64,000 nucleotides of DNA from an uncultured Lentisphaeria bacterium (lineage in GTDB: Bacteria > Fidelibacterota > UBA8477 > JABMPR01): positions 203,316-267,315 of the forward strand of contig CAYVVT010000003.1 of the NCBI GenBank assembly GCA_964454335.1, read 5' to 3'. How positions within the stretch are numbered: position 1 is the stretch's first letter; each line of letters opens with the position of its first letter. A program made the position numbers and the translations under genes. Below are positions 3,146-30,404 of this stretch, one piece after another. The notes under the pieces were generated by a model, which was given only the letters and a program-made list of their open reading frames with translations, searched no databases and was not told where the DNA came from.

Positions 3146-3526
3146 TCAAGGCTTCAGATACTTATCAAGTACCAACTGGAGTTGTTCAGCTGTATAGGGC
3201 TTGGCAAGATATTCCGCAAAACCGACTCGGTCGAATTCCTCCATGTGATCTTTCGCAAAGGCCGTCACAGCAACTGCAGGAGTATCGGTAAATCGTGATT
3301 CCATTTTAAGCAGCTCACAGAGCTGGATCCCACTGATCCCCGCTCCCAGGGCAATGTCCAGCAGCATAATGTCCACGGTTTTATCTTTCATTAAATCGAG
3401 CGCATCCTCACCGTTTTCGGCCGCAATAGCATGAATGCTCAATTTCTTGAGTAGAAATGATAGATATTGCCGCGAGGCAAAGTCATCTTCCACCAGTAGA
3501 GCTGATTGTCTGTTATTCGTATTCAT
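3146..3526 (-). CDS. Single-domain response regulator (REC)
   Basis: LLVEDD, phospho-acceptor LLDI, AVTA, KP motifs; 126 aa. Confidence 0.92.
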   Translation of the reverse strand: MNTNNRQSALLVEDDFASRQYLSFLLKKLSIHAIAAENGEDALDLMKDKTVDIMLLDIALGAGISGIQLCELLKMESRFTDTPAVAVTAFAKDHMEEFDRVGFAEYLAKPYTAEQLQLVLDKYLKP

Positions 3527-3568
3527 GATCCACTCAGATCCTTACTCGGATTGCTTAAATAAAAGCTA

Positions 3569-3949
3569 TTAACCCTGGGGCTTGTTTTGTTCGATCCAGG
3601 CCAGGATCTCCCCATGATTCGCCGGTTTCACCATGAATTTATCACAACCAGCGTCCAGTGCATTCTGACGGTCATTGCTAAATGCATGAGCTGTGATGGC
3701 GGCAACCGGGATCGCTTGCAGGACAGGATCCATCTTCATGTAACGGATGAGGTGCAATCCGTCACTCTCACCATCCAGGGAGAGGTCGATTAGGGCCAGG
3801 TCTACCTGGTTCTTCGAGAGGTGTTCGATAGAGTCTTCGACATTCGAAACGATGGTCAGTTCTAAGTGCTTTCCGAAAAGAAATTTGTACATGGTTTGTG
3901 TGGATGGATCGTCCTCCACGATCAAGAGTGAGATTGGATTGCTGTTCAT
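3569..3949 (-). CDS. Single-domain response regulator (REC, DivK-like)
   Basis: IVEDD, LIDL, AITAHAF, AGCD, KP; 4-nt overlap with the upstream kinase stop. Confidence 0.92.
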   Translation of the reverse strand: MNSNPISLLIVEDDPSTQTMYKFLFGKHLELTIVSNVEDSIEHLSKNQVDLALIDLSLDGESDGLHLIRYMKMDPVLQAIPVAAITAHAFSNDRQNALDAGCDKFMVKPANHGEILAWIEQNKPQG

Positions 3950-6579
3950 GCTTCTACCCTCATTTTTGGTAAGGTCAGCATCGCCTGGGTCCCCTTCCCT
4001 TTTTCACTTTCAATTGACAGTTCCAGTCCGTTAAGCTCTGTATATCGTTTTACAAGTGCCAGGCCCAGACCAATACCCTGATAGGTCTTGGTAAAACCCT
4101 CACTCTCCTGAGTGAAAGGTCTGAACATCCTTTCCTGGTAATCATTGGACATACCTACACCGGTATCCACTATACTCAACGATAAGTGATCGTTGGATTG
4201 ACTGAGATCTATCTTCACGGAACCAGTCTCAGTGTACTTGATGGCATTATCCAGCAAGTTAGCTATAGTCTGGGTCAGCAGATACTCATCCAGATAAACC
4301 TCATCATCCTGTACTTTGGAATTTACGCTAAATTCCAGTTTCTTCTCTTTGGCCAGGAATTGGTACTCCTCCTCAAGCTTGAGCAGCAGTGTTTTCAGTT
4401 GAAAACGGATTGGATTCAGACGTACTGTGTTCGATTCGATCTGGGAGATGTTCAGGATCTCATCAACAGTGTGCTGCAGACGAGTTCCATTGGCGTGGAT
4501 GAACTGGATGAAGAGCTTCTCGTCATCCACCAGCCTGTCCTCAAGATGGGATTCCAGCAGTTCAGTGAAGCCGAGAATACTGTTCAGCGGTGTACGTATC
4601 TCATGCGACACATTCGCCATGAAGGTGGATTTGATCCGTTCACCCTCCTGGGCCTTTTCAAGGGCATAATGCAACTCTTCATCAGCTTTTTTTTGCTCGG
4701 TGATATCACGAATGATGGCAAAGGTTGCCGGTTTCCCCAAGTAATCGATGATTTCATATTTCACATGGACATCAATAAGCGATCCATCCTTCTTTCTGAA
4801 GGTGCTTTCATAGGACCCAGATCCGCTTGACCTCCTTCCAGCAGTGGTTTTCTTGAACATTGCTGCAGAATCAGGTGTGTAGATCTTAGTAAAGCTTAAT
4901 CCCTGGATCTCTTCAACAGTGTAACCCAGCATTTCCGCGAAACGGGGATTCGAGAAGAAGATCTTGTCATCCTGGCTGATCTCGATCCCATCATTGGCAT
5001 TCTCAACGATGAGGCGGTATTTTTCTTCACTTTCCTGCAGTGTCTTTTCTGCAAACTTGCGCTCGGTAACATCTCGGATGATCGCGGTGAAATAGTGCTC
5101 ATCCTGGACATTCCATGTGGACAATGCCAGCTCCATGGGGAAGATCGTTCCATCCTTGCGTTGACCCTCCAACTCAGTGACCCGGCCGATCATGCTGCGC
5201 TTACCTGTTTTGATAAAACGCCGCATGCCTTCACTATGAGCAGCTCTCATCGTCTCAGGTATGATCCTGTCGAAGGATTGACCAACGATCTCGCTCTTGG
5301 TGAACCGGAAGATTGTCTCAGCCCCCTTATTCCAGGAGATGATATGGCCTTTGCTGCCCACTGAGATGATAGCATCCACAGCCGATTGGGTTACCGCTCG
5401 GTAGCGCTGCTCTGATTCCCTGAGCTCATTTTCATGTTTCACACGTTCCGTAACATCTCTGGCAATTCCCAGAACCACCTTTTGCTCATCGATCTCAACC
5501 GGGAAAGTGCTGATCTCGACTTTCAATTCAGAGCCATCACTCCTCCTCAGGGTAAATTCATCCGGCCCGGTGGATTTGCCCATTGTGTTCGCTGCCAACC
5601 GCGAAAGCACTTTGGGTATCTGGGATTTGGGAAGGAGATCTAGCTTGTCAAAACGTTTTCCAACAGCTTCTTCACGCTTGATCCCAAGCATTCTCTCTGC
5701 TGCAAAATTGGCATCAAGAAATCTCCCCTGGAGATCATTGATATAATAAGCATCCGGAGCATTCTCAAAGATGGTCCTGAAGCGCTCTTCAGATTTGCGA
5801 AGCTTGTCGGCGTTTCTTTGTATTTCCGAGATATCTTTACAAACACCCATGTATCCGAGGACTCCACCAAGACTATCCCTTATATGGGAGACAGACATGA
5901 GCACCGGAAAGATCGATCTGTCTTTTCGTTTGAATCGGATCTCAGATGTGAAATTCCCCTCTGAATCGACCCTCTTCTGGATCTCTTTGCCCAGTGCTTT
6001 ATCCGCATGGATCACATCGACAGTTCTACCGATCAGCTCTTCTTTTTTGTAGCCAAAGATTCCCTGAGCCGCCGGATTGAACTCAGTGATCTTGAGATCG
6101 TTATCTGTCGCAATGATCATATCCAGTGAGCTGCCCACCAGATTCTGGGCAAATTCCCGGTAGGTTTGCGCTGCTTTTTCGGCCAACCTTTTTTCGTCTA
6201 TGGTTTTCTTCCGGTCCAGAGCGCCAGCGACCGCTGAGGATAAGCGCTGCAGGTTTTCCTTCAGCACATAATCCCAGGCACCAGCCTTGATGCAATCCGC
6301 CGCGGTCTCTTCATTGATGGCCCCGGTAACGATGATGAAGGGTGTTTCCGGGCATATTTCCAGGGCAATATTCAAGGCATCCAACCCTGTGAACTGGGGC
6401 ATGTTGTAATCTGAAAGGATCAGATCAGGAGTGAAGTCCTCCAGGGCATCTCGGAAGGCGGCTTCATCATCGACATACTCCGCTACGAATTTGAGATCTG
6501 CTTTTTGAAGACCACGCTTCACCAACTCGGCATCGGTCATGAGATCATCAAGTAACAGTATTTTCATTGTTTCAGTCAT
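3946..6579 (-). CDS. Cytoplasmic hybrid sensor histidine kinase: REC-PAS x4-HisKA-HATPase
   Basis: N-terminal REC (LLLDD, ILSDY, FIIVTG), four PAS/PAC repeats ending D(I/V)(S/T)E, H-box SHEIRTPLN, N-box NLLDNAIKYT, DTGVG, GIGLGL. Likely start is ATG 6579 (track gives 6615). No TM helix. Confidence 0.93.
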   Translation of the reverse strand: MTETMKILLLDDLMTDAELVKRGLQKADLKFVAEYVDDEAAFRDALEDFTPDLILSDYNMPQFTGLDALNIALEICPETPFIIVTGAINEETAADCIKAGAWDYVLKENLQRLSSAVAGALDRKKTIDEKRLAEKAAQTYREFAQNLVGSSLDMIIATDNDLKITEFNPAAQGIFGYKKEELIGRTVDVIHADKALGKEIQKRVDSEGNFTSEIRFKRKDRSIFPVLMSVSHIRDSLGGVLGYMGVCKDISEIQRNADKLRKSEERFRTIFENAPDAYYINDLQGRFLDANFAAERMLGIKREEAVGKRFDKLDLLPKSQIPKVLSRLAANTMGKSTGPDEFTLRRSDGSELKVEISTFPVEIDEQKVVLGIARDVTERVKHENELRESEQRYRAVTQSAVDAIISVGSKGHIISWNKGAETIFRFTKSEIVGQSFDRIIPETMRAAHSEGMRRFIKTGKRSMIGRVTELEGQRKDGTIFPMELALSTWNVQDEHYFTAIIRDVTERKFAEKTLQESEEKYRLIVENANDGIEISQDDKIFFSNPRFAEMLGYTVEEIQGLSFTKIYTPDSAAMFKKTTAGRRSSGSGSYESTFRKKDGSLIDVHVKYEIIDYLGKPATFAIIRDITEQKKADEELHYALEKAQEGERIKSTFMANVSHEIRTPLNSILGFTELLESHLEDRLVDDEKLFIQFIHANGTRLQHTVDEILNISQIESNTVRLNPIRFQLKTLLLKLEEEYQFLAKEKKLEFSVNSKVQDDEVYLDEYLLTQTIANLLDNAIKYTETGSVKIDLSQSNDHLSLSIVDTGVGMSNDYQERMFRPFTQESEGFTKTYQGIGLGLALVKRYTELNGLELSIESEKGKGTQAMLTLPKMRVEA

Positions 6580-6633
6580 GATTGATACCTGTTCAGAACA
6601 GTTCCCCTCTTTCAATACACACCAGTATTGGTC

Positions 6634-7074
6634 TCAGCTTAGTGGCTTGTTCAACAGGAGCCAGTAGAATCCCAGTTCAGCGACAGAATCAACAAACTTG
6701 TCAAAATCAACCGGTTTGGTGATATAGCTGTTAACACCCAGCCTGTAGCTTTCGATGATATCGCGTTCCTCCGCGGAGGAGGTCAATACGACCACGGGGA
6801 TCGTACTGGTCTTTTCATTCGACTTAACCTGGCGCAGAACCTCCAATCCCTCCACCTTGGGGAGTTTCAGATCCAGCAAAATCAGTTTGGGATGCTGGTT
6901 TCCATTGCGTTCACTGTATTCACCCCTGGCAAACAGGAAGTCCAGGGCTTCGGCACCATCCTTCACCCAGTGCAAACTGTTGGATAACCGATGTTTCTTG
7001 AAGGCGCGTGTGGCCAGTTCCGCATCATTGGGATTATCTTCCACCATTAGAATTTGTACGTCTTGTAGATTCAT
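6634..7074 (-). CDS. Rcp1/CphA-associated-type single-domain response regulator
   Basis: [41 protein letters not shown]...GFYWL is the Rcp1-like signature. Confidence 0.92.
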
Positions 7075-8777
7075 TGCTGCTCTCCTGTCTCTGGTAAGCT
7101 AAAATTGATGGTGGTCCCGTTCTCAATGACTGATTCTGCCCAGACACGACCACCGTGACGTTGGACGATGCGCCTGACGATGGCCAGTCCGATCCCGGTC
7201 CCCTTGAAATCCTCATCTCGATGCAGGCGCTGGAAGATCTCAAAGATCTTGTCCACGTACTGCATGTCGAATCCTACACCGTTATCCTTTACGTGAATGA
7301 TCACTTCGCCATTTTCCTGCCGGCTGCCAATCTCGATCATGGCAGTTTCACGGGTTGCTGTGAACTTGACTGCGTTCCTTTGCAGGTTGGTCAATACCTG
7401 ACGGATCAGGGCAGGATCAGCAAGAACATTCGGTAAATTTTTGATCTGCCAATCGATCACTCTGCCATTGGTTTCTGTCATGATCTCTTCCCGGATCTCT
7501 TCGACCAAAGATGCCAGATCAACAGGCTGTGGATTCATGGCCTTGCGTCCCATCCGGGAGAAGGCCAGAATGTCATCTATGAGTGTTCCCATTTTCTCAG
7601 CATTTGCAGTAACGATGCCCAGCACCCTCCGACCCTCTTCGTCCAGATCTTTCGAATGGTCTTCTGCAAGGATCTTGGAAAAACCACCGATGGCTCTCAG
7701 GGGAGCACGCAGATCATGGGAGACCGAATAGCTGAAGGATTCCAGTTCCTGGTTGGTCTCGGTAAGCCGCTCCGTGGTACGCTCCAGATTTTTATTCACA
7801 CCCTGCATATCCTCAGCCAGATTGGTCATGCCGCGATTGAGTAGTTCCACTTCATTCACGCGCTCCTGCAGCTCTCGGGTACGCTCTTCAACCAGTTCCT
7901 CCAGGTCATCCCTGTGTATGGTGAGTTCATCCTCGATTTTTTTACGCTGGGTGATATCGATTCCCATGCCGATCAGGTAAATATCATTATTGATCTGCAC
8001 CCTGGCGCCAGTACAGAAATAGGGTAGGGCTTCTCCCTGCTTTGTCACCAAGGAGGTTTCGATGCTGGATTCACCCGCTGTGAATACTTCTTGGATCGCA
8101 TTGGAGGTTGCTTCCTTGAATTCTTCAGCGATGAGATCAATAGCAAGCATCTTACCCATTTCTTCAGAGGAATAACCACTGAGGATCTCGAAGTTCCGGT
8201 TCCACCGTAACATCCGCCCGTCTGTACCGAACATATAGAATACACCTGGCAGACTGTTGATCAGCTTATCCGCAAATTCCTTTTCCAGCCGGGCTTGTCT
8301 CTCGGCCGTATGTTGCTCGGTGATATCCAAGACGGTGCCTTCGACTCGCACAGGCTGACCATTTTCATCCTTGATCAAGCGCGCGTTTATTTGCACGGTT
8401 ATTTTTTCCCCGCCCACCTTTTTCGCTTTGGCGAGATAATTTCTGATCTTTCCCGTGGCCTGAAAAGCCTCTAGATATTCTTGCCGATCTTGAGGGTCCT
8501 GCCAGAAATCTGGCAACCTCAGTCCGACGTAGTCCTTGTCCGTATCAAGCCCGAGGATTCGGCAGAGTTCCTGATTGTATTCCAGGAGATCTCCATCTAT
8601 GGTGACACTGTAAAAACCTTCCATCAGATGCATGATCATATCATGGAATTTTGCTTCACTTTGTTCAAAGGTCCCATCGATCTGCCTCAGTTCGCTGATA
8701 TCCTGCTCCGCAAGTCTCTGGCGGAGAGTTTTCAACTCAGATATGAGTGCCTGCTTGGTCTTGTCATCATCCGTCAT
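7071..8777 (-). CDS. PAS x2 sensor histidine kinase with a phytochrome-like (COG4251-type) kinase core
   Basis: [19 protein letters not shown]-box, [27 protein letters not shown]; two PAS domains. Likely start at 8777 ([15 protein letters not shown]). Confidence 0.92.
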
Positions 8778-8844
8778 TAGTGGAAATTCCCTGGTAGTCT
8801 GACAGAACATGGTTCACGAAGGTTGACGATTTGTTGTTCGCGCT

Positions 8845-10353
8845 TCACAGTTCAGCTTTCAGAGGATCATCAACCTTAGGGCTCAAACCAGCTTCTTCCA
8901 GCTGCATGCGCAGGTCTTGAATAACTCTCTTCAGGTCTGACATACGCACTTCGCGACCTGCCATCAGGTTGATCGTTTGTCTCAATTCGGAGGTCCGTTC
9001 CTCCACCAGGTCCTCAAGGTGTTCACGATAGTTCTTTAACTCCGATTCTGTCTGTTCCTGTTCAGTGATATCATGGATATGTCCAACCAGTCGGACGACC
9101 TCTTCTGCATCGTTCATGGTCATCTCATTTGAACCTTCCATGCTCCTAACGGAACCATCTGGTCTGATGATTCTATATTTGAATTCTCTGGGTTTCTTTT
9201 CGGCAAGCATCTCTACAATGTTTCTCTTCACATCCTCTACATCATCAGGATGAAAAAAACGGAACACAGAATCGAAGTCTCCATCATACTCTTCAGCTGA
9301 AAGTCCGTACAACCGGAGTGCATTGTCAGAATACGTGACCTGGTTGGATACCAGATCCCACTCCCAACTGCCCATAGCTGCGACCTTCTCGGCCGTTGCC
9401 AACACTCGGAGGGAATTCTGCAGAGATTCCTCGGCTTTTTTCTGCTCGGTGATGTTCACTGCCAGCCCTAACAGACCGATTACTTCACCTTCTTGGTTCA
9501 AATGAGGTGTATACCAACTTCTGAAATGGTTATCGGCAACATTGACATCAACCGTTAATGACTCACCTTCAAAGGTCCTCCTCATGTGATCCAGCATTTC
9601 AGGGTAATCCTTGTACAGATCAAAAACAGACTGGCCCACAACCTGTCCCGGTTCCAAACCCAATTTGGCCAGACCCTTTCCTTCGGACAGGAGGAAGGTG
9701 CCATCCCGGGCAATCAGGTATATGATTTCTTCATTATTCGTAACCAGGGTCCTGAATTTCTCTTCGCTCTCCCCCAAGGCCTTAGAAATGGCTTTTCTGT
9801 CAGTGATATCCTCAACAACGCCGATTGCATACTTCGGACTTCCGTCAGGGTGCTGGATCATGGATACGGTGAGAGCTCCCCAGAACACTTGTCCGTCTTT
9901 CCGGATATATCGCTTCTCCATTGAATAAGATTTGCGGGTACCGGCTGCGAGTTCATTGAAAAGGGTTACATCAGCATCAAGGTCATCGGGATGGGTAAAA
10001 TCCATGAATGACAGATCCAGCAATTCTTTTTCAGAAAATCCCAGGATCTCGGAAAGTCGGCTATTGACCAGTAGTAGTCGACCCTCTGGAGACACGTGTG
10101 CAACACCCACAGCGGCCTGTTCGAAGGTACCCCTGAAGCGTTCCTCACTTTCTTCCAGATTCCTAATAAGTTCCCGGATGTCGTCGATGAAGAGTTTCAG
10201 GGCCACGAACAGCTCTGTGAATTCATTTTCCTCCTCCGGGATCTCGAAATCCCTGGAAAAATCTCCCAGGGCATATTCCTGCAGAAAGGGAGTCAGCTCA
10301 GCGAGTTGCTCAGCGACGAAACCCTTGTATTCATCAACCTTGTCTGAGGTCAT
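8845..10353 (-). CDS. HAMP-like/PAS x3 protein with C-terminal coiled coil and no kinase or other output domain
   Basis: N-terminal ALGDFSRDFEIPEEENEFTEL (HAMP-like), three PAS domains, ends LEDLVEERTSELRQTINLMAGREVRMSDLKRVIQDLRMQLE. Start 10353 follows RBS GGAGG and overlaps the upstream stop (ATGA). Confidence 0.85.
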   Translation of the reverse strand: MTSDKVDEYKGFVAEQLAELTPFLQEYALGDFSRDFEIPEEENEFTELFVALKLFIDDIRELIRNLEESEERFRGTFEQAAVGVAHVSPEGRLLLVNSRLSEILGFSEKELLDLSFMDFTHPDDLDADVTLFNELAAGTRKSYSMEKRYIRKDGQVFWGALTVSMIQHPDGSPKYAIGVVEDITDRKAISKALGESEEKFRTLVTNNEEIIYLIARDGTFLLSEGKGLAKLGLEPGQVVGQSVFDLYKDYPEMLDHMRRTFEGESLTVDVNVADNHFRSWYTPHLNQEGEVIGLLGLAVNITEQKKAEESLQNSLRVLATAEKVAAMGSWEWDLVSNQVTYSDNALRLYGLSAEEYDGDFDSVFRFFHPDDVEDVKRNIVEMLAEKKPREFKYRIIRPDGSVRSMEGSNEMTMNDAEEVVRLVGHIHDITEQEQTESELKNYREHLEDLVEERTSELRQTINLMAGREVRMSDLKRVIQDLRMQLEEAGLSPKVDDPLKAEL

Positions 10354-10730
10354 TTGTTGTCCTCCTGCAACCATTGCATTGCTTCTGTCTCTTTGGCAAA
10401 ATGCCGTGCGTTCTTCTGATCCGCTGCCCGGGTGATAAAATTAGCAACGGTACGGACTATGACAGATGCACCCACAAAAGCCATTTTGTTAATGTTGTTT
10501 TCCCTGATAGCATTCGCGATAATCTTACGAGCCTGTGCACTGGGGGGACGGATCTCTTCGCTCAGATCGCAGAGAAAATTTACCGTCCCATGTGCAAGAC
10601 ATATTTCCTTTATCTGCTTGGCAAAGAACTCGGCGATCTCAACGTTGATATGTCCACTCACCCAGTTACGACCGACCTGCTTGGATTCATCCCACCACAT
10701 TCTGTAGTTGTCCCCTTGGCCCTCAGGCAT
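10350..10730 (-). CDS. STAS/SEC14 (SpoIIAA-like) domain protein, paralogue 4
   Basis: YRMWWDE...LCDLSEEIRPPSAQARK...MAFVGAS...RTVANFI...RHFAKETEAMQWL. Confidence 0.85.
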   Translation of the reverse strand: MPEGQGDNYRMWWDESKQVGRNWVSGHINVEIAEFFAKQIKEICLAHGTVNFLCDLSEEIRPPSAQARKIIANAIRENNINKMAFVGASVIVRTVANFITRAADQKNARHFAKETEAMQWLQEDNK

Positions 10731-11121
10731 GAGTCACCTCAGTATTTTGCCTGTCTTCCAGCCAGGTAAAGGCTTCTTCATTGGTGGCAAAGTGACGGAT
10801 ATTGGTTTTACCCGAGGCATGGGCTAAAAAATTGGCCAGGGTACGCAGCAGGATCGATGCCCCAGTAAAGATGAAGGTCCCGGAGTCCACGCTAGCCATA
10901 GCTTCGGCCAGGATCTTGCGAGCCTTCGAGGATGGCGCTTTGCCTGCATCTTTTAGATCAATAAGCCAATCAACTTCCCCGTGCTGCAGGTGCATTTCTT
11001 GAATGACGCGGGAAAATACTTCGGCATCCGGTTCAGCGAGCTGCCCGGAGACCGAGCCGCGGGCGATCTGGTGGTTCTCATCCCACCACAACCTGTAGTT
11101 TTCTCCCCTGTACTCAATCAT
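10723..11121 (-). CDS. STAS/SEC14 (SpoIIAA-like) domain protein, paralogue 3
   Basis: YRLWWDE...WLIDLKDAGKAPSSKARK...FTGAS...RTLANFL...RHFATNEEAFTWL. Likely start ATG 11121 overlaps the upstream stop. Confidence 0.85.
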   Translation of the reverse strand: MIEYRGENYRLWWDENHQIARGSVSGQLAEPDAEVFSRVIQEMHLQHGEVDWLIDLKDAGKAPSSKARKILAEAMASVDSGTFIFTGASILLRTLANFLAHASGKTNIRHFATNEEAFTWLEDRQNTEVTHA

Positions 11122-11515: not shown

Positions 11516-11518
11516 GGT

Positions 11519-11887
11519 TTACCCCTCTCTCTTGAAGATCCATTCGAGTGCTGACGCTTCGGTGGTGAAATGACGTGTATGTGTTTTTCCAGTTGCCTTG
11601 CTCATAAAGTTGACCACGACCCTCACGAATGTGGAGGCTCCGAAGAAGGCGAATTTGCGGATGCTGGGATGGCCGATAGCTTCTGTCAATTTCTTCCGGG
11701 CGGGGGATGTGATACTGGTCAGCTGGGTAAGATCCACCAGCCAATCAATACCGGTCCCGCGTTCATTGGCGATCCTCTCGGTTTCTTCAACAATACCAAT
11801 GGCGTCTTCTATATCGAACAGGCTGAATGCCTGGCCCCTGGCCAGACCCAGCTCTTCATCCCACCAGATGTGGTAATTGTCTGACAT
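11519..11887 (-). CDS. STAS/SEC14 (SpoIIAA-like) domain protein, paralogue 1
   Basis: YHIWWDE...WLVDLTQLTSITSPARK...AFFGAS...RVVVNFM...RHFTTEASALEWI; TGATG overlap with the upstream REC gene. Confidence 0.85.
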   Translation of the reverse strand: MSDNYHIWWDEELGLARGQAFSLFDIEDAIGIVEETERIANERGTGIDWLVDLTQLTSITSPARKKLTEAIGHPSIRKFAFFGASTFVRVVVNFMSKATGKTHTRHFTTEASALEWIFKREG

Positions 11888-12264
11888 CAGTTCACCCGGC
11901 TTTCCTTAGCCTGGATCCCCTCCAGGTAAGTGTTCAGTTTGTGGAACTCGGTGGCCTTGTCGATGAAGAATTCAACACCGGCTGCCGTACAGCGGTCCCG
12001 ATACTGCACATAGGGATAATTAGTGAGTACGATTACAGAGGGCTTCTCCTGAACAGATTGCAGGCTATCCAGGATCTCCAGCCCATTCCCATCCCTGAGT
12101 CTCAGATCCAGGATCAATACATTCGGTCTGGTTCGATGGATCTCATCAATGGTGCCTGCAACGACTTCTGCCTGACCTACGATCTGAACATCCTTAAGAT
12201 CGCTGATCATGGAGATGACTCGCTCTCTCAGCATCTCAGAGTCGTCCACGATAAAAACCTTCAT
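11887..12264 (-). CDS. Single-domain response regulator (NarL-like REC without HTH)
   Basis: FIVDDS, LILDLRL, VIVLTN, FIDKA; 125 aa, no output domain. Confidence 0.9.
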   Translation of the reverse strand: MKVFIVDDSEMLRERVISMISDLKDVQIVGQAEVVAGTIDEIHRTRPNVLILDLRLRDGNGLEILDSLQSVQEKPSVIVLTNYPYVQYRDRCTAAGVEFFIDKATEFHKLNTYLEGIQAKESRVN

Positions 12265-12329
12265 ATGCGAGTCCCTTCAATTCTGTTCTCAATTCGGGAA
12301 AAGCATAAGCACGGAGTTGTCGAAAGTGT

Positions 12330-12418
12330 GTAGTAGCTGTATGTGTCAGCCTGTCCTAATTTTCTGAAAATGCTGTCGTAGGATTACTACAGGAGTGACC
12401 CTGCTATAGTACAGCTAC
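12330..12418. promoter_or_regulatory. Cluster of GTAG-N5-CTAC-type palindromes upstream of the REC-STAS operon (candidate response-regulator operators)
   Basis: GTAGGATTACTAC (12378-12390), ATAGTACAGCTAC (12406-12418), GTAGTAGCTGTAT (12330-12342). Confidence 0.35.
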
Positions 12419-12566
12419 AGTAGGGAGGTTATGGTGTCACCGCGAGGAGAGAAGGGCTGCTGATGAAGTCTTCAGCAGATCAGCGCGCACGAGTGCAGTC
12501 CTGAGAGACGCTGTGATCTGCGTAGCAAACCTGGCTGCAATGAGATAACTCAGTAAATGACTGACT

Positions 12567-12621
12567 AGATTGCTTCGTTATTAGGACATGCAATCGGCAT
12601 GTCCTAAATCCTCGCAATGAC
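12567..12621. repeat. Palindromic REP/RPE-like element with an internal hairpin
   Basis: AGATTGCTTCG...CCTCGCAATGAC ends enclose a perfect 11-bp stem, TTAGGACATGC-AATCG-GCATGTCCTAA (12581-12607). Confidence 0.6.
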
Positions 12622-12689
12622 AGTGCCAGGGCCAAGGCCAGATTAAGTTGGATATCGAATATCTGCTAATTGAGGAAGGTAAAAGCTGC

Positions 12690-13322
12690 CTACTCGATCA
12701 ACTTGTGCGTCACTGCGTAGCGGACCAGCTCGGCATTGTTCTCCAGGTCCAACTTTTCCAGAATCCTGCTACGATAGGTGCTCACCGTCTGAACACTGAT
12801 ATGGTGTTCAGCAGCGATCTCTTTCAAGCTCCGGCCATGAGCAAGTCCCAGTAAGACCTGGTACTCGCGCTGAGAGAGATCCTTCATCCGACTATCGTTA
12901 TTCTGATGTTCCAACGTATCAAGCATGGATTCCGCGAATCTGGATGATACATACTTATGGCCGTCCATGACCCGCACAACGGCCCGGGTGAGTTCATCTG
13001 ACAGATTATCCTTGGTGATATAGCCCCAAGCTCCATTCCGAAAAGCCTGCCGGGCATATTGCTCTTCCGGGTGCATGCTAAGCATTATAACACGGGTAGT
13101 GATATGATTTTCCCTGATATCCCTGAGGAGATCAATGCCATTCTTATCCGGCAGGGTTATGTCCAGCGAGACCATGCTCGGATGGTGGCTCTCCATGAGA
13201 TCCAGGGCCTCGGCAGCAGTGTTCGCTTCGCCAATGACCTTGACTCCCGGTATGTCTTCCAGAATGCCCCGGATACCCCGGCGAACCACCGGATGATCAT
13301 CCACGATGAGGATCGTTTCCAT
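12690..13322 (-). CDS. NarL/FixJ-family response regulator (REC + LuxR HTH)
   Basis: IVDDHPVVRRG, SLDITLP, MLSMHPE, LSQREYQVL...SVQTVSTYRSRILEKL. Confidence 0.95.
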   Translation of the reverse strand: METILIVDDHPVVRRGIRGILEDIPGVKVIGEANTAAEALDLMESHHPSMVSLDITLPDKNGIDLLRDIRENHITTRVIMLSMHPEEQYARQAFRNGAWGYITKDNLSDELTRAVVRVMDGHKYVSSRFAESMLDTLEHQNNDSRMKDLSQREYQVLLGLAHGRSLKEIAAEHHISVQTVSTYRSRILEKLDLENNAELVRYAVTHKLIE

Positions 13323-16300
13323 GGTCCTCTAATATATTCTCCACTGGTACTCTTACCATCACTCTCGTGCCCCGCCCCTCTCCCCCGGAGATCTCCAGTC
13401 TACCGTCCCAGGGTATCAGACGTTCCCTGATTCCCAGCAGGCCGATGGACAGCGGATTGCTGATCTGTTCCTCAGACATACCGACCCCATCATCACTAAC
13501 ACTCATGATCACATCTTCTCCGTCCTCTTTCAACTCCACTGTCACCGAGCTGGCCTCGGCGTGTCTGAAGACGTTGGTCATGGTCTCCTGCAGGATGCGG
13601 TAGATAGCTGTGGTGATCTCAGGATTGAACAGATCCGGATCTGCAGGAAGATCGAAGCTCACCTCAAGGTCCCTTCGATCGGCTATTCCCGATAAATACC
13701 ATTCCATAGCTGGAATAAGACCGAGATCATCCAGGATACCTGGCCGGAGATAGGCTGATAATTGCTGCACACGTGTGCTGGTTGTTTTAACCAGGTCTAC
13801 CAGTTCATCGAATTCCTTGATCTGTGCTTCAGAGTCCTGGGGCAGGTGCTTTCTCAATCTGTTCAGGTCCATCCCGATGGCTGTGAGGGATTGCCCCAGG
13901 TCATCATGGATATCCCGGGATAATCTTGCACGTTCCTCTTCCTGGATGGACTCAAGTCTACGTGATAAGAGCCGTAGTTGGTCGTGGGATTGTTCCAGTT
14001 GCTGCTGAGCTTGCTTTCGCTCACTGATATCATGCATGGCATTCAGGAGCTGTCGTGAACCACCCTCGCCGCTTAGGGTAATGGAATCCATGGATATCCA
14101 TATAGGGGTGCCATCTTTGCGGGAAAGCTGGACTTCGTAATCCCTCACTGGTCCCTCACTGGCAGTCTGCCAATATCGTTCTCTGTCTCCAGGATTGACC
14201 CAATGCTCAGTAGCAGTTGCTGCCAATAATTCCTCTTTTGTGTCATAGCCCAGAATGTTCAACAGAGCTGGATTCGACTCTAATATTTCTCCAGTATAGC
14301 TTGTCACAGATACCCCGGTGGGGAGGCCTTGGATCAGGTTCCTGAATCTTGCTTCTGACTCTTCCAGTGCTGTTGTCGTTTGCCTGAGATCCGTGATATC
14401 CTTTGAGTTCACCCAGATGTGTGTGAGCAAGCCATCTTCTATTACACCAAACCAGTTTTCTAAAGAAACCAGCCAACTGCCATCACGCAGATACACTTCT
14501 ATTTCATGGTTGTGAAAGCGATAGTCATTTTCAATGAATTCTCTTAATACCTTGACATACTGGTCCGTCACCGTCAGTTCGCCTAGTGACTTACCAACAA
14601 AGGAATCCCTGCTTTTAGCTCCCACTCTTCTCCAACTTGCCTTGTTAGCATCTAGACAAATGGATTGCAAGAGCAGGTCCACCTGTTGCTCAACAGGTAG
14701 ATCGGATCTCAAGCCATCAGGCATCTTCCAGTACGACACCTCATCTGTAGAGGCGTTGATGAACTCGGTATACTGCATCTGTGTTTGGCGAAGTTCTTTC
14801 TCTATCAGTTTACGCTCGGTGATATCTGTAAAGACTCCATAGGCGTATGATACGTCGTCCACTTCCTGAATGAAATTTGCTCTATCGTTGAGCCAGATCC
14901 ATTTTCCATCCTTTCTCTGGATCCGGTATTCGACATGCATGGGACGCCCCTCAGCGAACAACTTTTGATAATCTTCCTGAAGCAGGTCAAGGTCGTCAGG
15001 ATGGATCCTGCCAAGCCATAGTTCACTGCCAGCTGACAAGATCTCCTCTTCTGTATAACCGTAGATATCCTTCACATTTGAAGAGATAAAAGTCGTTCTT
15101 CCCTGTGCGTCGGACCTCCAGACCACGGATGGCAGGTGGTCCAGCATGGTCCTTGTCTGGGTCTCGCTATCACTGAGCTGTTTCTCGGCGATTTTTAGCT
15201 CCGTAATATCTTTGCCAGTGGCCCATATGTGGGTTAGCCTTCCATCTTCAACGGCGCCATACCATGTATCCAGGCTATGGTATTCCCGATCAGCTTCCAA
15301 TAGTTCCCAATGGATATAATCAACCAGTGCATAATCATTCTTGATGAACTCAGTGAATAGTTCATCTGAGTTCTTGCTCCGTAAAAGTTCCTGGTACTGC
15401 TTTCCAATAACCTCTTCCTTGTCATTAAATCCTAACTTTTCCCAGCCGGCCTTATTCGAATCGATCAAGACGATATCATATAGCAGCTTGACCTGTTCAT
15501 TCACCGGCAGGTCCGTTTTAAGACCATCCGGTACTTTCCAGTAGGTTACTTCGTCAAAAGAGGAGTTAATGAAGTCCGTATAGTGAAGCTGTGTGGTACG
15601 CAGTTCCGCTTCCATCTGCCTGCGCTCGGTAATATCCCGACTGACACCTACAATGCCTAAGACCTGTCCCTGTTTATCGCAAAAGGGGAATTTCGAATTT
15701 TCCAGGGATCGCTCGTTTCCATCTTTATCCAGCCAGTAACCTGAAATTTCTATCTCAGGTTCTTGAGTCTCAAGGATCTTATCTTCATCCTGATGATATT
15801 GCTCGGCTTCATCTTTTGGATAGTTATCAAGATCAGTTCCACCTATCAATTGCCCCGGATCATCCAATCCGTACCTGTGGGCAAATTCCTGGTTACCGAT
15901 GATGTACCTGTGGTCAGTGTCCTTGGCGTAAAGTACAACAGGTAAAGCATCAATAAGTGCCCGCATCAGATTGTGCTGATATTCCAGTTCGTTCTCAGTT
16001 TGTTTACGCTGAGTGATATCAATTCCTACACCAAAGAATTCCCGGTTCTCAGCATCCGGATCTTCGATGGGGCAACCGTGCCACTCCACAAGCAATTGCT
16101 GACGGTCACGGGTGAGAATATGATTCTCATTGACGGTCATTTCCGGATAATCAGTGAGTTTCTTAAAAGTATCACGAAGATCATCGTGTTCATCTGCAGG
16201 AACGAAGAGCTGGAGATAATCCTTACCGATCACCTCCTCTTCAGAGTATCCCAGGGAATCCAGCATCAATTGGTTCATCATGATCACTTTGCCCGATGCA

Positions 16301-17589
16301 TCGACGATTACGAAAAACGCTGGGGCGGTTTCGATGAGCCGTTGGCTGAAATCCCGTTCCTGTTGAAGCGCCTGTCGAGCTTCCTTGCTGGTGGTGATAT
16401 CCTGTATCTGAACAACATTGTAGAGTATACTCTCATCCTCCGCCAGGACCGGACTGACGGTGGTTAGGCTCCAGATGATCTCCTTTTTTCTGGTGACATA
16501 CCTTTTTTCCAGCGAAAATGGTTTCTTCTCCCTCTGATATGTGGCATACATCTCAGCACTGATCTCATGGTCATCCGGATGCGTAAGATCCAGAAAGCTT
16601 AGATTTTTAATTTGCTCATATGAATATCCAAGCATCTCGCTACCAGCTTCATTTATGGATATAAATTTTCCGGAACTGTCTGTCAGCATTATGCCGATGG
16701 CCGAGGATTCAAAGATGGAACGGAATTTTGCTTCACTATCCCTGAGTCTTTCTTCGGTTTGGACGCGCGCGGTGATATCCTCACCTGAACTCAATGTTCC
16801 TGTGATATTCCCTTTCGCGTCCTTTAAGATCGAATTATGCCAGGCAATGATCTTTTCTTCACCATCCTTCGTTACGACGGCATTCTCAAAGTATTGAGTT
16901 GCTTCTAGTTCTGCTGCCATCACTTGATTAAATACACTTCTAACCTCCCTTTTCATGCGTGCCGGGATAAAATGATCGATCCAATCCTTACCGTTGATCT
17001 CTTCCTGGTCATAGCCAAGGATCTCACTGCCCTTCTGGTTCAACAGAGTCACCTTGCCTTCAGTATCAAGCGCTATTAAAATTACACCTGCAATATCCAG
17101 GTATTGTTGTGCCTTGTCCCTTTCCTCTGTAAGCGCCCCTGCTACCTGTCTGCGCGTAGTGATATCTCGTCCAATTGAAACAAAGTATTTCGGTATTCCC
17201 TCTTTATCCTTAATAGTGGATACGTCATACTCAGTGGGAACCTTGCTGCCATCCTTGCAGATCAGGTCCAGTTCGATCCTGCCAGTTCCTTTTGATAATA
17301 CCGCTTCCATGAAGGGTATCGCCCGCTCCAGATCTTCCGGGCTGTAATAAGAAGCTGGGGCTGGTAGCCTGGCGATCTCTTCGTCACTGTAACCTGTTAT
17401 GTCTTTAAAGGCTTGATTCCAGCGTAGAGCTTTAGCACTCGCTGGGTCAAAAAGGAAAAAGGTGTCACGCTGGGCATCCAGAGCCAATTTGAGGAATGCC
17501 ATCTCATTGAGATTTTGCTCTTCTGCTTGTTTGCGCTCGGTGGATTCCTGATGACGTACATCTTTATTATGAGGCTTTGGCGTGCTCAT
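13297..17589 (-). CDS. Cytoplasmic sensor histidine kinase, PAS x9 + HisKA_3 + HATPase (NarX/UhpB-like core)
   Basis: QEEERARLSRDIHDDLGQSLT, LRPGILDDLGL, YRILQETMTNVFRHA, SDDGVG, GLLGIRER; nine PAS/PAC units counted. Likely start at 17589 after AAGGAG. Confidence 0.93.
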   Translation of the reverse strand: MSTPKPHNKDVRHQESTERKQAEEQNLNEMAFLKLALDAQRDTFFLFDPASAKALRWNQAFKDITGYSDEEIARLPAPASYYSPEDLERAIPFMEAVLSKGTGRIELDLICKDGSKVPTEYDVSTIKDKEGIPKYFVSIGRDITTRRQVAGALTEERDKAQQYLDIAGVILIALDTEGKVTLLNQKGSEILGYDQEEINGKDWIDHFIPARMKREVRSVFNQVMAAELEATQYFENAVVTKDGEEKIIAWHNSILKDAKGNITGTLSSGEDITARVQTEERLRDSEAKFRSIFESSAIGIMLTDSSGKFISINEAGSEMLGYSYEQIKNLSFLDLTHPDDHEISAEMYATYQREKKPFSLEKRYVTRKKEIIWSLTTVSPVLAEDESILYNVVQIQDITTSKEARQALQQERDFSQRLIETAPAFFVIVDASGKVIMMNQLMLDSLGYSEEEVIGKDYLQLFVPADEHDDLRDTFKKLTDYPEMTVNENHILTRDRQQLLVEWHGCPIEDPDAENREFFGVGIDITQRKQTENELEYQHNLMRALIDALPVVLYAKDTDHRYIIGNQEFAHRYGLDDPGQLIGGTDLDNYPKDEAEQYHQDEDKILETQEPEIEISGYWLDKDGNERSLENSKFPFCDKQGQVLGIVGVSRDITERRQMEAELRTTQLHYTDFINSSFDEVTYWKVPDGLKTDLPVNEQVKLLYDIVLIDSNKAGWEKLGFNDKEEVIGKQYQELLRSKNSDELFTEFIKNDYALVDYIHWELLEADREYHSLDTWYGAVEDGRLTHIWATGKDITELKIAEKQLSDSETQTRTMLDHLPSVVWRSDAQGRTTFISSNVKDIYGYTEEEILSAGSELWLGRIHPDDLDLLQEDYQKLFAEGRPMHVEYRIQRKDGKWIWLNDRANFIQEVDDVSYAYGVFTDITERKLIEKELRQTQMQYTEFINASTDEVSYWKMPDGLRSDLPVEQQVDLLLQSICLDANKASWRRVGAKSRDSFVGKSLGELTVTDQYVKVLREFIENDYRFHNHEIEVYLRDGSWLVSLENWFGVIEDGLLTHIWVNSKDITDLRQTTTALEESEARFRNLIQGLPTGVSVTSYTGEILESNPALLNILGYDTKEELLAATATEHWVNPGDRERYWQTASEGPVRDYEVQLSRKDGTPIWISMDSITLSGEGGSRQLLNAMHDISERKQAQQQLEQSHDQLRLLSRRLESIQEEERARLSRDIHDDLGQSLTAIGMDLNRLRKHLPQDSEAQIKEFDELVDLVKTTSTRVQQLSAYLRPGILDDLGLIPAMEWYLSGIADRRDLEVSFDLPADPDLFNPEITTAIYRILQETMTNVFRHAEASSVTVELKEDGEDVIMSVSDDGVGMSEEQISNPLSIGLLGIRERLIPWDGRLEISGGEGRGTRVMVRVPVENILEDHGNDPHRG

Positions 17590-17885
17590 ACTCCATCTCC
17601 TTAATTGACAAGAGTGTGGATGAATACAGGACATTCATCAGAATCAATAGCTTATAACTTGAAAATATAAATGCGGTGGTACAGGATTACCTAAGAAGAA
17701 GAGGAAAATACTGAATGCAGGAACCACTTTGACAGGTCTCTGCTCTACTTGAGGTATTGGATCATCGCTGACATGGAAGCTCCAGTACTGAAAAATAGAA
17801 TGATCTGGAGTCGCGCCTGATGTGGAGAATTCTGATACTTCAAATCCTCTAGGACACCTTCAGCAAAAATCGATGAGACACCACG

Positions 17886-17912
17886 GTAACACACTGATAA
17901 ACAGTTAGTTAC
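17886..17912. repeat. 27-bp palindromic intergenic motif, copy 2
   Basis: GTAACACACTGATAAACAGTTAGTTAC = GTAAC-N3-CTG-N5-CAG-N3-GTTAC, followed by AAAATA. Confidence 0.6.
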
Positions 17913-18189
17913 AAAATATGCCGTAATACCACGGATCAGAAGGTGTCGCAAAGAACCACATAAAAACGTGGCTTTTTGCTTACAGAAGAATCCTCACCAG
18001 AAAACCGGATTCATCAGTGCCATTCCATTGAATGTCGCAGTGGCCCGGTGGTTGCTTGTTAGAATGACTTGACAATGTCTGGAATCTCTTCGGTCTGGCA
18101 GCAATGTATATTGACCCATTCAGGATCAGAGTACCTGCTTAGGAATCCTTATCATTCTGACTTACCTTTCGATCAGAGAAAGCAATATC

Positions 18190-19794
18190 ATGCTTACAGC
18201 GATAGTGAAACACCTGAAAACCTTCAGGTATGCGTGGATTCTGGGGCTAATCTGGACTGCCATCGCATCTGCCTCACTCATACACAATATCAACAGGATC
18301 AACACCAATATCGTGAAGGGAGCAACTCTTCAGGCCTTGATCGCTTATGAGGAAGATATTTCCTACAGGCGCTGGAATGCGAACCATGGTGGTGTTTATG
18401 TGCCCGTGAGCGACATCGCCGTTCCGAACAAATATCTGGAAGGGATACCAGGACGTATAATTATCTCCACCGAGGGAGATACCCTTACCTTGATGAATCC
18501 CGCTTATATGACCCGTCAGGTCAATGAGATAGAATTACTGAGCATGGGGGTTATTTCTAATCTCACCAGCCTCAATCCAGTACGTCCGGGGAACAAAGCA
18601 GATGATTGGGAAACCAGAGCACTCCAGTCCATGGATGCGGGTGAAATTGAAATCACTGAAACGGTTCCCTGGAACGGGCAGGAGTTCTTCCGTTTCATGC
18701 GACCTTTGTATACCGAGAGGTCCTGTTTGAAATGTCATGCCCAACATGGGTTCAGTGAAGGTGACTTGCGTGGCGGGATCAGCATCAGTATTCCTATGCA
18801 GCATCTGCACGAGCTGGGTGTTCAGGATCGCAGAAGAACTGCACAGTGGCATGTGACCTTCTGGCTTCTTGGATCTATGGGAATTTTCGCTGGAACAGTC
18901 AGTCTCAGGAATAAGGAACTGCAAAGGATCAAGGCTTACAAAGAAGTAAGCCGGTCTGAAAAGAAGTACCGCAGTGTCGCAACCGAGCTGGACATTAAGA
19001 ATACTGAGTTAGAGAAGGCCTATCAGATCATTCAGAAACAGAAGGAGCGCATGGAGGATGAACTAACCGTCGGGCATGAGATCCAGATGAGTATGCTTCC
19101 GCTGATCTTTCCTGCATTTCCTGACCATGACGAATTTGAGGTCTTTGCTCAACTGGAACCAGCACGGGAAGTAGGCGGTGATTTTTATGATTTTTATCTC
19201 CTGGACGAAGAACATTTCTGCTTCTGTATCGGTGACGTGTCAGGGAAGGGTGTTCCTGCGGCCTTGTTCATGGCTGTTAGCAAAACCCTGATCAAATCCC
19301 AAGCAGCCGAGAGTCTATCGACTGCAAAGATCCTCACGCAGGTGAATCGGGAACTCAGTAAGGATAACACGACGGATATGTTCGTCACTCTCTTCATCTG
19401 CATTCTGAACATTAGAACAGGACAATTGCTCTATACGAACGCAGGACATAACCCACCTTACCTGAAACATGCCATGAGTGAGCGTCTCACCCGTTTAGAC
19501 AAAAGACACGGTACGATCCTGGGTGTCATTGAAGATCAGACCTATGAAGAAGCCCGTATTCAACTGGAGGTCGGAGATTCAATCCTTCTCTATACCGATG
19601 GTGTCACTGAGGCTGTCAATCCTAAGGATATCCAATACTCCGAAGAGAGCCTGGTGCGGTTACTGGAATCCAGGGATTTTAACTCAGTGAAAGATCTTGT
19701 GGCCTCTGTAATGAAATCAGTAACAGATTTTGAAGCAGGTGCCGAGAGAGCTGATGATATTACTATACTTGCAGTTGAATTTCAGGATCATTAA
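18190..19794 (+). CDS. Membrane-bound PP2C/SpoIIE (RsbU-type) phosphatase with a periplasmic haem-c (Tll0287/DUF3365-like) sensor
   Basis: Two TM helices flank YRRWNANHGGVY...MNPAYMTRQ...CLKCH...GGISISIP; PP2C motifs EVGGDFYD, IGDVSGKGVPAALFMA, NAGHNPP, LYTDGVTEA, DDITIL. Confidence 0.92.
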   Translation: MLTAIVKHLKTFRYAWILGLIWTAIASASLIHNINRINTNIVKGATLQALIAYEEDISYRRWNANHGGVYVPVSDIAVPNKYLEGIPGRIIISTEGDTLTLMNPAYMTRQVNEIELLSMGVISNLTSLNPVRPGNKADDWETRALQSMDAGEIEITETVPWNGQEFFRFMRPLYTERSCLKCHAQHGFSEGDLRGGISISIPMQHLHELGVQDRRRTAQWHVTFWLLGSMGIFAGTVSLRNKELQRIKAYKEVSRSEKKYRSVATELDIKNTELEKAYQIIQKQKERMEDELTVGHEIQMSMLPLIFPAFPDHDEFEVFAQLEPAREVGGDFYDFYLLDEEHFCFCIGDVSGKGVPAALFMAVSKTLIKSQAAESLSTAKILTQVNRELSKDNTTDMFVTLFICILNIRTGQLLYTNAGHNPPYLKHAMSERLTRLDKRHGTILGVIEDQTYEEARIQLEVGDSILLYTDGVTEAVNPKDIQYSEESLVRLLESRDFNSVKDLVASVMKSVTDFEAGAERADDITILAVEFQDH

Positions 19795-27651: not shown

Positions 27652-27663
27652 CTTGATTCTGAC

Positions 27664-30027: not shown

Positions 30028-30404
30028 AACAGCCCCCTGTTTATTTGTGTTCAAGTTTCATATCCCTTTGAATTTACAGAAAGTCAACCCTGTTTCAAAT
30101 CGGGTCACGACTCCAATGATTTGAAGCACATTAGCCGCAGGCTCAGGCCTGTTCCCGATTTTTCCATCTGTTCACCCTTTTCTCATGTGAGTAAACGCAC
30201 CCTAAGTGAAACAATCCGCACATTGTGAATGGCGTGAGCTTATAAGTTGTGAACCCTGGTAGTTGATCGGTGTTCCCCTGGCGAGAACTGATTTCCGGGG
30301 ATCGAAGATGATGATTCCAATCCCCTGTCTGCCATGTTATCCTTGGAAAGACCCTGAGTCGGGGTCTGCGAGCAATCGATATGTAATACGAAAGGAGGCC
30401 AGAT

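Follow-up and report, generated by a model that had tools for sequence, protein, structure and literature searches.

A STAS-like/HAMP-like gene pair in a mosaic cluster of two-component signalling genes from an uncultured member of the Fidelibacterota

Described systems and the locus

The sensor kinases LuxQ and TorS are driven by separate periplasmic binding proteins, LuxP and TorT, which act on the periplasmic domain of the kinase, and transducers of the Aer2 type are soluble proteins with several HAMP domains (poly-HAMP). Here we describe a 16.6-kb stretch of DNA in which the genes of four small STAS-like proteins stand directly ahead of a gene whose product, called here the adaptor, begins with a HAMP-like domain. 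The stretch (positions 3146-19794) lies in a segment of 64,000 nucleotides (nt) of contig CAYVVT010000003.1, referred to as the window and used for all positions, from an uncultured bacterium of the Fidelibacterota with an assembled genome of 3.6 Mb in 47 contigs (completeness 93.75%; G000). Its gene content was established from the list of open reading frames (ORFs), their translations and a Pfam scan. The stretch carries a real, densely packed group of genes for cytoplasmic two-component signalling. Rather than one conserved system, this group is a mosaic of four modules (A, B, C and D) specific to the lineage, and its conserved unit is a STAS-like gene followed by a gene for an N-terminal HAMP-like domain. 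Outside this cassette, the cluster is ordinary PAS-rich two-component wiring of a kind common in environmental bacteria.

The arrangement proposed below is like LuxP-LuxQ and TorT-TorS in that a detachable ligand-sensing subunit would dock at the input side of a transducer lacking its own sensor; it differs in that the two parts would both lie in the cytoplasm, with a STAS-fold protein as partner and a HAMP-like bundle to receive it. A profile of the HAMP-like domain retrieves very long proteins of the poly-HAMP kind, in which Pfam marks between 7 and 17 HAMP stretches, among others P0049 (2344 amino acids, aa; 17 stretches) and P0084 (1194 aa; 7 HAMP and 8 HAMP_2); in contrast, the adaptor has a single HAMP-like unit, placed at residue 1, and belongs with proteins that end in a particular tail (46 of the best 150 matches). 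Module C recalls Cph1-Rcp1 in having an Rcp1-type receiver (Rcp1, RcpA and RcpB, E about 1e-24) whose gene overlaps that of the preceding kinase, but this kinase has PAS and no phytochrome domains, and a receiver-gated second kinase and two further receivers follow.

Partner switches of the SpoIIAA/SpoIIAB/SpoIIE and RsbV/RsbW/RsbU type share with the cluster a small, single-domain, protein-binding regulator with STAS fold and a SpoIIE-family PP2C encoded nearby; in SypE/SypA, receivers are encoded in the same operon, as they are here (PMC12826045). Unlike them, the cluster has PF11964 and PF25056 in place of PF01740, four tandem STAS-like paralogues and a HAMP-like protein as conserved neighbour, and the Pfam scan of the cluster gave neither a stand-alone HATPase_c_2 kinase of the RsbW/SpoIIAB type nor a sigma factor. 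The stressosome (RsbR/RsbS/RsbT) differs by its sensor-STAS fusion, the four STAS-like proteins all being single-domain, and by its RsbT-like kinase, for which the same scan of the cluster was negative. The Shewanella DUF3478 proteins (PDB 2ook and 2q3l) do share PF11964, and 2q3l is the best structural match (E 3.2e-5, TM score 0.65-0.68), although identity is only 18-20%. DUF3478 proteins have been predicted to be carriers of hydrophobic compounds, with no link to HAMP domains or kinases stated in the part of that source considered (PMC2954197), and a word search in a 2021 review of STAS-only proteins gave no occurrence of histidine kinase, HAMP or two-component (PMC8256260).

A conserved STAS-like/HAMP-like gene pair

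The pairing was examined in every context that could be read, namely the window, the metagenome contigs L006 and L007, and G212, a distant member of the same phylum (locus L018). In 4/4 of these the gene after the STAS-like gene starts with a HAMP-like domain of about 66 residues (consensus ...YALGDFSxxIxIPEEEDEFTEL...), with the STAS-like stop and the HAMP-like ATG overlapping or at most 2 nt apart. The output behind the domain varies: three PAS domains and a tail in the window, one PAS domain and the same tail in L007, and HisKA-HATPase in G212, while the L006 gene continues into PAS and is cut by the contig end. A receiver gene is found just upstream of the pair in L006, G212 and the window, and the full order in L006 is HisKA_3 kinase, REC, STAS-like, HAMP-PAS. 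The G212 locus (L018 6769-11565, on contig C20) encodes a REC, a 7TM-PAS-GAF-PAS kinase, the STAS-like protein and a HAMP-like-HisKA-HATPase protein of 331 aa, and adjoins TonB-receptor and HmuY-like genes.

In an even sample of the phylum (401 genomes), the STAS-like and the HAMP-like profiles each match the same two genomes, G000 and G212. Concomitantly, the HAMP-like domain was observed in 1 of 151 genomes of the order of G212 (G212 only) and in 1/8 of its genus. As both profiles match the same two genomes and the domain is rare in that order, the pair is sporadic and travels together. Physical contact was addressed by complex prediction with two HAMP-like chains (residues 1-90, 4-row alignment) and STAS-like 4 (25-row alignment), which returned ipSAE values of 0.60, 0.60 and 0.62 when compared to 0.00 in all three controls and was rated as weak support; at least 89% of contacts recur between the runs, and the partner has a pLDDT of 87 or higher. 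In the calibration of the tool the mark is reached by 116/157 solved complexes and by 2/215 mismatched pairs. An earlier reading of this DNA made from its letters and ORF list (the sequence-only reading) had taken the STAS proteins for inputs, and this view gains support from the coupled pairing, the shared occurrence in two genomes and the weakly passing complex prediction.

Searches for further contexts with the STAS-like query gave only L006 and L007 among metagenome contigs, and those with the HAMP-like region only the window's own protein; on plasmids, neither protein had a match. The sole match of the STAS-like query to a genome contig, L005, was deemed spurious, lying in an implausible high-GC frame, and the HAMP-like profile had 0/401 matches in the phylum of that genome, a count obtained without a positive control. 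In the ESM Atlas only generic DUF7793 and PAS/HAMP clusters were found.

The label given earlier to the small proteins, four STAS proteins in a row, stands with regard to number and fold, while the family is PF11964/PF25056 and not the classical STAS family PF01740. All four, which are single-domain and 122-133 aa long, pass PF11964 (SpoIIAA-like; 29.4-43.7 bits, cut-off 25) and two also pass PF25056 (DUF7793; 33.5 and 40.7 bits, cut-off 26); no NCBIfam model names them. The AlphaFold model of STAS-like 2, built on an alignment of 23 sequences, has a pLDDT of 93.4, and its best PDB matches in Foldseek are 2q3l (DUF3478), SpoIIAA and RsbS, at TM scores of about 0.6-0.7, together with RsbV. In the tree, copies 2, 3 and 4 form one clade (99/99), which points to local duplication, and copy 1 groups loosely with single-copy metagenome forms. 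The profile of the four paralogues matched 22 other clusters among 5.8 billion, all metagenomic, a count that is a lower bound since the search was word-based. A fifth, weak PF11964 protein of the genome is encoded on contig 7, and none of the neighbouring genes is a signalling gene. Helix 2 starts in this family with Thr/Ser in 21/23 members, then Ser in 19/23, followed by an invariant Arg; the predicted helix 66-78 of the model begins at this Thr/Ser-Ser, and STAS-like 4 has Ala at the second position. Judged by position, the Thr/Ser-Ser may correspond to the SpoIIAA phosphorylation site (Ser58).

The adaptor begins with the HAMP-like domain (residues 1-66), continues with three PAS domains and ends in a C-terminal coiled-coil tail; it has no enzymatic output. 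Its ORF as listed runs over 8845-10374 (a 509-aa form); the start preferred in Table 1 lies in an ATGA overlap with the STAS-like 4 stop. The name HAMP, used in the sequence-only reading, was right in kind, as the profile retrieves poly-HAMP proteins, but the window protein itself has no Pfam HAMP match at E<=0.01, and its homologues in L006 and L007 reach 22.0 and 19.2 bits against PF00672, below the cut-off of 25. The profile of the N-terminal 66 residues retrieved 603 representatives (E<=1e-3, 50% identity), and the best 150 matches mostly start at or near residue 1 of PAS/HisKA proteins. In the adaptor, the domain likewise starts at residue 1 and not directly after a transmembrane helix, no hydrophobic window reaching 1.6. 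Because the profile retrieves true poly-HAMP arrays, the N-terminal domain is a HAMP subtype outside the curated Pfam model, and soluble PAS/HisKA proteins usually have it at residue 1. Some, such as P0114 and P0160, have a PAS domain directly before the HAMP-like domain in cis, which fits a missing input module in the N-terminal forms. The genome of the window has a single HAMP-like copy.

The tail, '...FNRLAVGRExRMIELK..N.L..LG...PYDxSF', ends 46 of the best 150 HAMP-like matches without an enzymatic domain (for instance P0042, P0044 and P0050), and the adaptor has a divergent form of it (8845-9000). Pfam has no model for it, and a literature search with the tail motif strings returned no relevant paper. 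Besides, searches on DUF3478, DUF7793, PF11964 and PF25056 returned nothing about signalling, those on Marinimicrobia with two-component terms nothing relevant among the matches listed, and those combining STAS domain with HAMP and histidine kinase or partner-switching no STAS-HAMP pair among the matches listed, as judged by titles and the beginnings of abstracts. Thus, no description of the cassette or of the tail-bearing adaptor family was found in the literature searched.

The modules around the pair

Module A comprises the PAS9-HisKA_3 kinase and the NarL-type regulator; module B the receiver REC_c, the four STAS-like genes and the adaptor; module C the PAS2 kinase, the Rcp1-type receiver, the REC-PAS4 kinase and the receivers REC_b and REC_a; and module D the PP2C on the opposite strand. 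The gene order and coordinates of the stretch were borne out by the ORF list, the translations and Pfam (Table 1), and the domain scan found everything that had been counted: three kinases, six REC domains, four STAS-fold proteins and one PP2C. The 18 PAS regions are all present as well; when the four PAS proteins are cut into 18 slices, 16 of these reach the gathering score for one or more of the Pfam PAS families and two stay below it. As had been claimed, the only helix-turn-helix of the stretch is the GerE domain of the NarL-type regulator. In 3/3 kinases a DHp domain (HisKA or HisKA_3) and HATPase_c score above the Pfam cut-offs and the H-box His can be read directly in the translation. 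PF00072 is above its cut-off in 6/6 REC domains, whose acidic pocket, phospho-acceptor Asp, Thr/Ser and Lys were assigned by visual inspection of the translations.

Table 1. Features of the stretch (window positions).
Feature	Position	Strand	Evidence
REC_a, stand-alone receiver, 126 aa	3146-3526	-	Pfam
REC_b, stand-alone receiver, 126 aa	3569-3949	-	Pfam
REC-PAS4-HisKA-HATPase_c kinase, N-terminal receiver; likely start ATG at 6579	3946-6615	-	Pfam
Rcp1-type single-domain receiver, 146 aa	6634-7074	-	Pfam, PDB match
PAS2-HisKA-HATPase_c kinase	7071-8810	-	Pfam
HAMP-PAS3 adaptor, 502 aa; likely start ATG at 10353	8845-10353	-	Pfam, profile, junction
STAS-like 4	10350-10730	-	Pfam, tree
STAS-like 3; likely start ATG at 11121	10723-11121	-	Pfam, alignment, junction
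STAS-like 2	11114-11515	-	Pfam, structure model, STAS fold
STAS-like 1 (DUF7793/SpoIIAA-like), copy nearest the single-copy metagenome homologues	11519-11887	-	Pfam, tree
REC_c (module B), stand-alone receiver, NarL/LytTR-like, 125 aa, no output domain	11887-12264	-	Pfam
425-nt spacer with one REP-type repeat copy (12569-12621)	12265-12689	no strand	
NarL/FixJ-type response regulator, REC + GerE helix-turn-helix	12690-13322	-	Pfam
Module A kinase, 1445 aa, 9 PAS regions + HisKA_3 + HATPase_c, cytoplasmic	13297-17634	-	Pfam, translation
Module D, Tll0287-like + SpoIIE (PP2C) phosphatase	18190-19794	+	Pfam, translation, PDB matches

The run from 12264 to 3146 was described as one packed unit, and its 11 genes are indeed spaced like an operon: 7/10 junctions overlap or are at most 3 nt apart, comprising a TGATG (REC_c stop and STAS-like 1 start), a 3-nt spacer, two 8-nt overlaps (one of them between the STAS-like 3 start and the STAS-like 2 end) and three ATGA overlaps, while the other three measure 34-54 nt. 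The statement that the minus-strand proteins have no transmembrane helix was retained in part. In 19-residue Kyte-Doolittle windows, none of them reaches the threshold of 1.6; however, no protein does, the PP2C with its two hydrophobic segments included, and as these likely membrane segments go unflagged the test discriminates poorly and cannot prove that helices are absent. DNA contigs from four runs of two studies cover the region, all pieces at 99% identity or more, and one of them bridges the gap between NarL and REC_c (11870-13244), another that between kinase and PP2C (17258-18384). Since contigs bridge the joints of the modules, the arrangement is no assembly chimera or artefact. The flanking genes (Wzi-like, hydrolase, ceramidase-like, MMPL) include none for signalling, which indicates that the boundaries of the stretch are right. 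Elsewhere in the window, three long ORFs (487, 796 and 564 aa; 26188-30054 on the minus strand and 44033-45727 on the plus strand) have no Pfam match at E<=1e-5.

Module C and the stand-alone receivers are organised in coupled genes. The Rcp1-type receiver gene is in ATGA overlap with the preceding PAS2 kinase gene, and REC_b is coupled in the same way to the PAS4 kinase with its N-terminal receiver. The Rcp1-like label was confirmed by the match to PDB Rcp1 (1i3c/1jlk, E 3.5e-24 over residues 8-139); RcpA and RcpB match at about 1e-23, and the best PDB match is 5ic5 (2.1e-42). REC_a and REC_b are paralogues (30% identity) and resemble the receivers of hybrid kinases, the best NCBIfam models of REC_a being BarA, TorS and HrmK. 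REC_c gives its best local match to the REC domain of the NarL-type regulator (54 bits, 27%), with BtsR and NarL as best NCBIfam models. The Hpt domains of the genome are all encoded on contig 15, none in the stretch.

In module A, the 1445-aa kinase has seven firm PAS regions and one divergent pair, and its H-box reads 'IHDDLGQ'. The divergent regions (PAS6 and PAS8; residues 678-818 and 948-1088) score 20.2 and 18.9 bits, where the cut-off is 27. Encoded at 14371-14793 and 15181-15603 (minus strand), the two have 45% identity; both contain a 'YWK(V/M)PDGL' stretch and fall under every Pfam PAS cut-off, and an unusual PAS subtype seems to have been duplicated here within the protein. The gene of the NarL-type regulator starts within the kinase gene (26-nt overlap), and its best NCBIfam models are of MctR, UvrY/GacA and NarL types, all under their cut-offs. 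It had been suggested that this pair switches on a second tier, a claim for which we obtained no evidence. A promoter/terminator consensus scan gave 15 and 12 sites where 22.3 and 14.3 are expected, which is at or below chance and uninformative; the 425-nt gap has no such consensus above chance, and the Rfam scan of the whole window found no family. As RNA the gap folds somewhat better than shuffled sequences (z -2.62), which is due to the REP-type repeat. A perfect 11-nt palindrome (12581-12607), unique in the genome as an 11-mer, was considered as a NarL operator and rejected: it is one copy of a genome-wide REP-type repeat, and so it does not support a NarL-controlled promoter. A second copy identified by BLASTN on contig 17 has compensatory stem changes; the family has conserved flanks (ATTGCTTCG ... 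CGCAATGAC) and variable inner stems in which pairing is kept by such changes. A loose pattern of the flanks has 16 matches in the genome, where about 1.6 are expected by chance (by arithmetic, with no shuffle control), and TTAGGACA occurs 18 times in the genome, three of them in the gap. Copies lie, among other places, at C17:64702 and C6:171364/171450.

In module D, two hydrophobic segments flank a Tll0287-like domain (PF11845, 74 bits against 24.1), followed by the SpoIIE domain, a layout that by sequence corresponds to that of a membrane sensor. Tll0287 binds haem c, and a CXXCH haem-c motif (CLKCH) is present in the translation. The PDB matches of the protein are the phosphatase domains of RssB, Rv1364c and SpoIIE. 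A place of the PP2C in the circuit was not supported: its gene is transcribed divergently, no serine kinase of the RsbW type is encoded in the island, and elsewhere the genome has a classical STAS protein as well as an RsbW-like kinase and another PP2C. The PP2C is probably a neighbour that is independent of the cluster. The only classical STAS gene of the genome (C5:98214-98624), its only RsbW-like kinase gene (C8:84655-85131) and the GAF-PP2C gene (C17:35479-37422) are scattered on three contigs among unrelated genes, which gives the PP2C of the window a conventional possible substrate. In G004, a relative, a 633-aa protein with a Tll0287-like domain is 34% identical to the sensor part of this PP2C and is followed by a 466-aa receiver-containing protein (both within L024 4210-7518, on contig C1), i.e. 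the same haem-sensor module with a different output.

The idea of one island was not sustained by the synteny check, the whole gene order being present in none of the relatives searched. The STAS-like gene was found in 0/40 relatives and the Tll0287+PP2C architecture in 0/28, while the GAF-type PP2C is common to all 28; around the MMPL orthologue, 13-20 kb in 5/5 relatives contain no island gene and nothing else in common with window positions 1-30000. One relative, G004, keeps part of module C in order, with an Rcp1-type REC (52% identity), a REC-PAS4 kinase (37-38% along its whole length) and a receiver like REC_b (40%). The G+C content of the stretch is 0.481 when compared to 0.524 for the genome (lowest 0.8% of windows of the same size), and its tetranucleotide distance is in the top 1.3% of windows. 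Other kinase genes of the genome are also GC-poor (0.456-0.523), thus composition is only a weak hint of transfer.

Proposed mechanism and alternative explanations

We propose that the HAMP-like domain at the N terminus of the adaptor is a docking site in trans for the STAS-like proteins, which would there replace the transmembrane helices or the in-cis sensor that normally drive a HAMP. The four paralogues could then be alternative or combinable inputs, which the adaptor would integrate with its three PAS domains and signal via the coiled-coil tail to a kinase, most simply the next-encoded PAS2 kinase. This kinase would phosphorylate the Rcp1-type receiver and probably also the N-terminal receiver of the PAS4 kinase. 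The PAS4 kinase would then phosphorylate the last two receivers, both of a single domain, which may act by protein-protein contact. HisKA_3 kinases pair with NarL-type receivers, and the module A kinase would be the likeliest donor to the NarL-type regulator and to REC_c, and could couple modules A and B post-translationally; that it may feed both follows from the NarL-like character of REC_c and the gene order in L006. Taken as a whole, with four modules in mosaic, STAS-like inputs to a HAMP adaptor and a kinase relay, this is our best explanation, and we put it forward tentatively, at a little less than an even chance. A broader version is possible but doubtful: DUF7793 STAS-fold proteins would be detachable cytoplasmic sensors for membrane-less N-terminal HAMP transducers, forming a mobile input cassette in which here four inputs converge on one HAMP, and the tail would be a piece for docking a kinase in trans.

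Several observations weigh against this mechanism. The pair contexts are only four, all were found via the STAS-like query, and the sources of L006 and G212 may be related to each other; how many N-terminal HAMP-like genes have a STAS-like gene ahead of them was answered only within one phylum sample. At 50% identity, the HAMP-like family has 603 representatives, against 26 STAS-like clusters at 90% identity from a less sensitive, word-based search, and hence many HAMP-like proteins may work without such a partner. A fusion of the two was present in 0/42 scanned proteins, and longer (fused) STAS forms in none of 8000 candidates, the latter being weak evidence. The receivers of L006 and G212 are 63% identical to each other, but their identity to REC_c is only 24-25%, which means that the contexts do not have orthologous receivers. 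With regard to the complex prediction, its score is in the weak band of the tool and small alignments were used; in the calibration, scores of 0.60 or less included 18/157 solved complexes and both of the passing mismatches. The tail has no detectable similarity to the next-encoded PAS2 kinase, and the step from adaptor to kinase is therefore purely inferred. Finally, given the Thr/Ser-Ser at the position of the SpoIIAA phosphosite, a phosphorylation-based partner switch is conceivable, although nothing links such a switch to the locus.

The rival that survives best, which we nevertheless regard as unlikely, is adjacency without a common circuit: independent two-component pairs would have gathered in a variable region, perhaps by transfer, and the STAS-like proteins would be carriers of small molecules or lipids, a role suggested for DUF3478, with no part in signalling. 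The lack of conservation of the whole order in the relatives searched and the deviating composition (G+C and tetranucleotides) are in agreement with this. However, the STAS-like/HAMP-like coupling is seen repeatedly ahead of different outputs, and the two parts occur in the same genomes; start/stop overlaps run throughout the 11 genes, and the GC-poor kinase genes elsewhere make composition weak evidence of transfer.

Less probable again, and in our judgement quite unlikely, is a dispersed partner switch, in which the RsbW-like kinase of contig 8 would phosphorylate the STAS-like Thr/Ser-Ser, a PP2C would reverse this, and only the unphosphorylated form would bind a target, which could be the HAMP adaptor itself. 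The ingredients exist, namely the STAS fold, the conserved Thr/Ser-Ser at the N terminus of helix 2 and, in the genome, an RsbW-like kinase and two PP2Cs; besides, partner switches on targets other than sigma factors are known, for example SypE/SypA (PMC12826045). Against these stand the replacement of the Ser in 4/23 family members, including STAS-like 4, the RsbW-like gene being unlinked and placed among housekeeping genes, and the lack of a serine kinase or PP2C by the pair in the 11.6-kb context of G212 or in L006. Moreover, K-A-R-K replaces the Gly-rich motif that follows the phospho-serine in SpoIIAA.

A circuit on the lines of the sequence-only reading, in which the NarL pair would activate the 11-gene operon from the 425-nt gap and the nearby PP2C would set the state of the four STAS inputs, could draw on NarL as the only DNA-binding protein of the stretch with its gene directly upstream of the gap, on a PP2C gene about 6.3 kb from the nearest STAS-like gene and on the conserved Thr/Ser-Ser, but it is very unlikely, given promoter-like sites below expectation, a palindrome that is a genome-wide REP-type copy and no unique operator, no RsbW-type kinase in the island to phosphorylate a STAS, a PP2C architecture found in 0/28 relatives, no PP2C in the 11.6 kb around the G212 pair (L006 and L007 being too short to tell) and a classical STAS, RsbW-like kinase and GAF-PP2C elsewhere that offer the PP2C an orthodox substrate.

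The proposed docking of STAS-like proteins on the HAMP-like domain would address how HAMP domains are driven without membrane helices or an in-cis sensor, and it bears on STAS-only, DUF7793 and DUF3478 proteins, whose roles beyond sigma-factor control are largely unexplained. If the pairing holds, it would represent a new input logic in two-component signalling and give a role to a Pfam domain of unknown function. It would do the same for the N-terminal HAMP subtype (603 representative clusters) and for the C-terminal tail, neither of which has a name. Should the broader cassette version be true, the pair would bolt onto different outputs, be it a PAS-tail adaptor, a PAS kinase or a bare HisKA kinase, and in the bacterium studied here it would provide combinatorial cytoplasmic sensing upstream of a multi-kinase relay.

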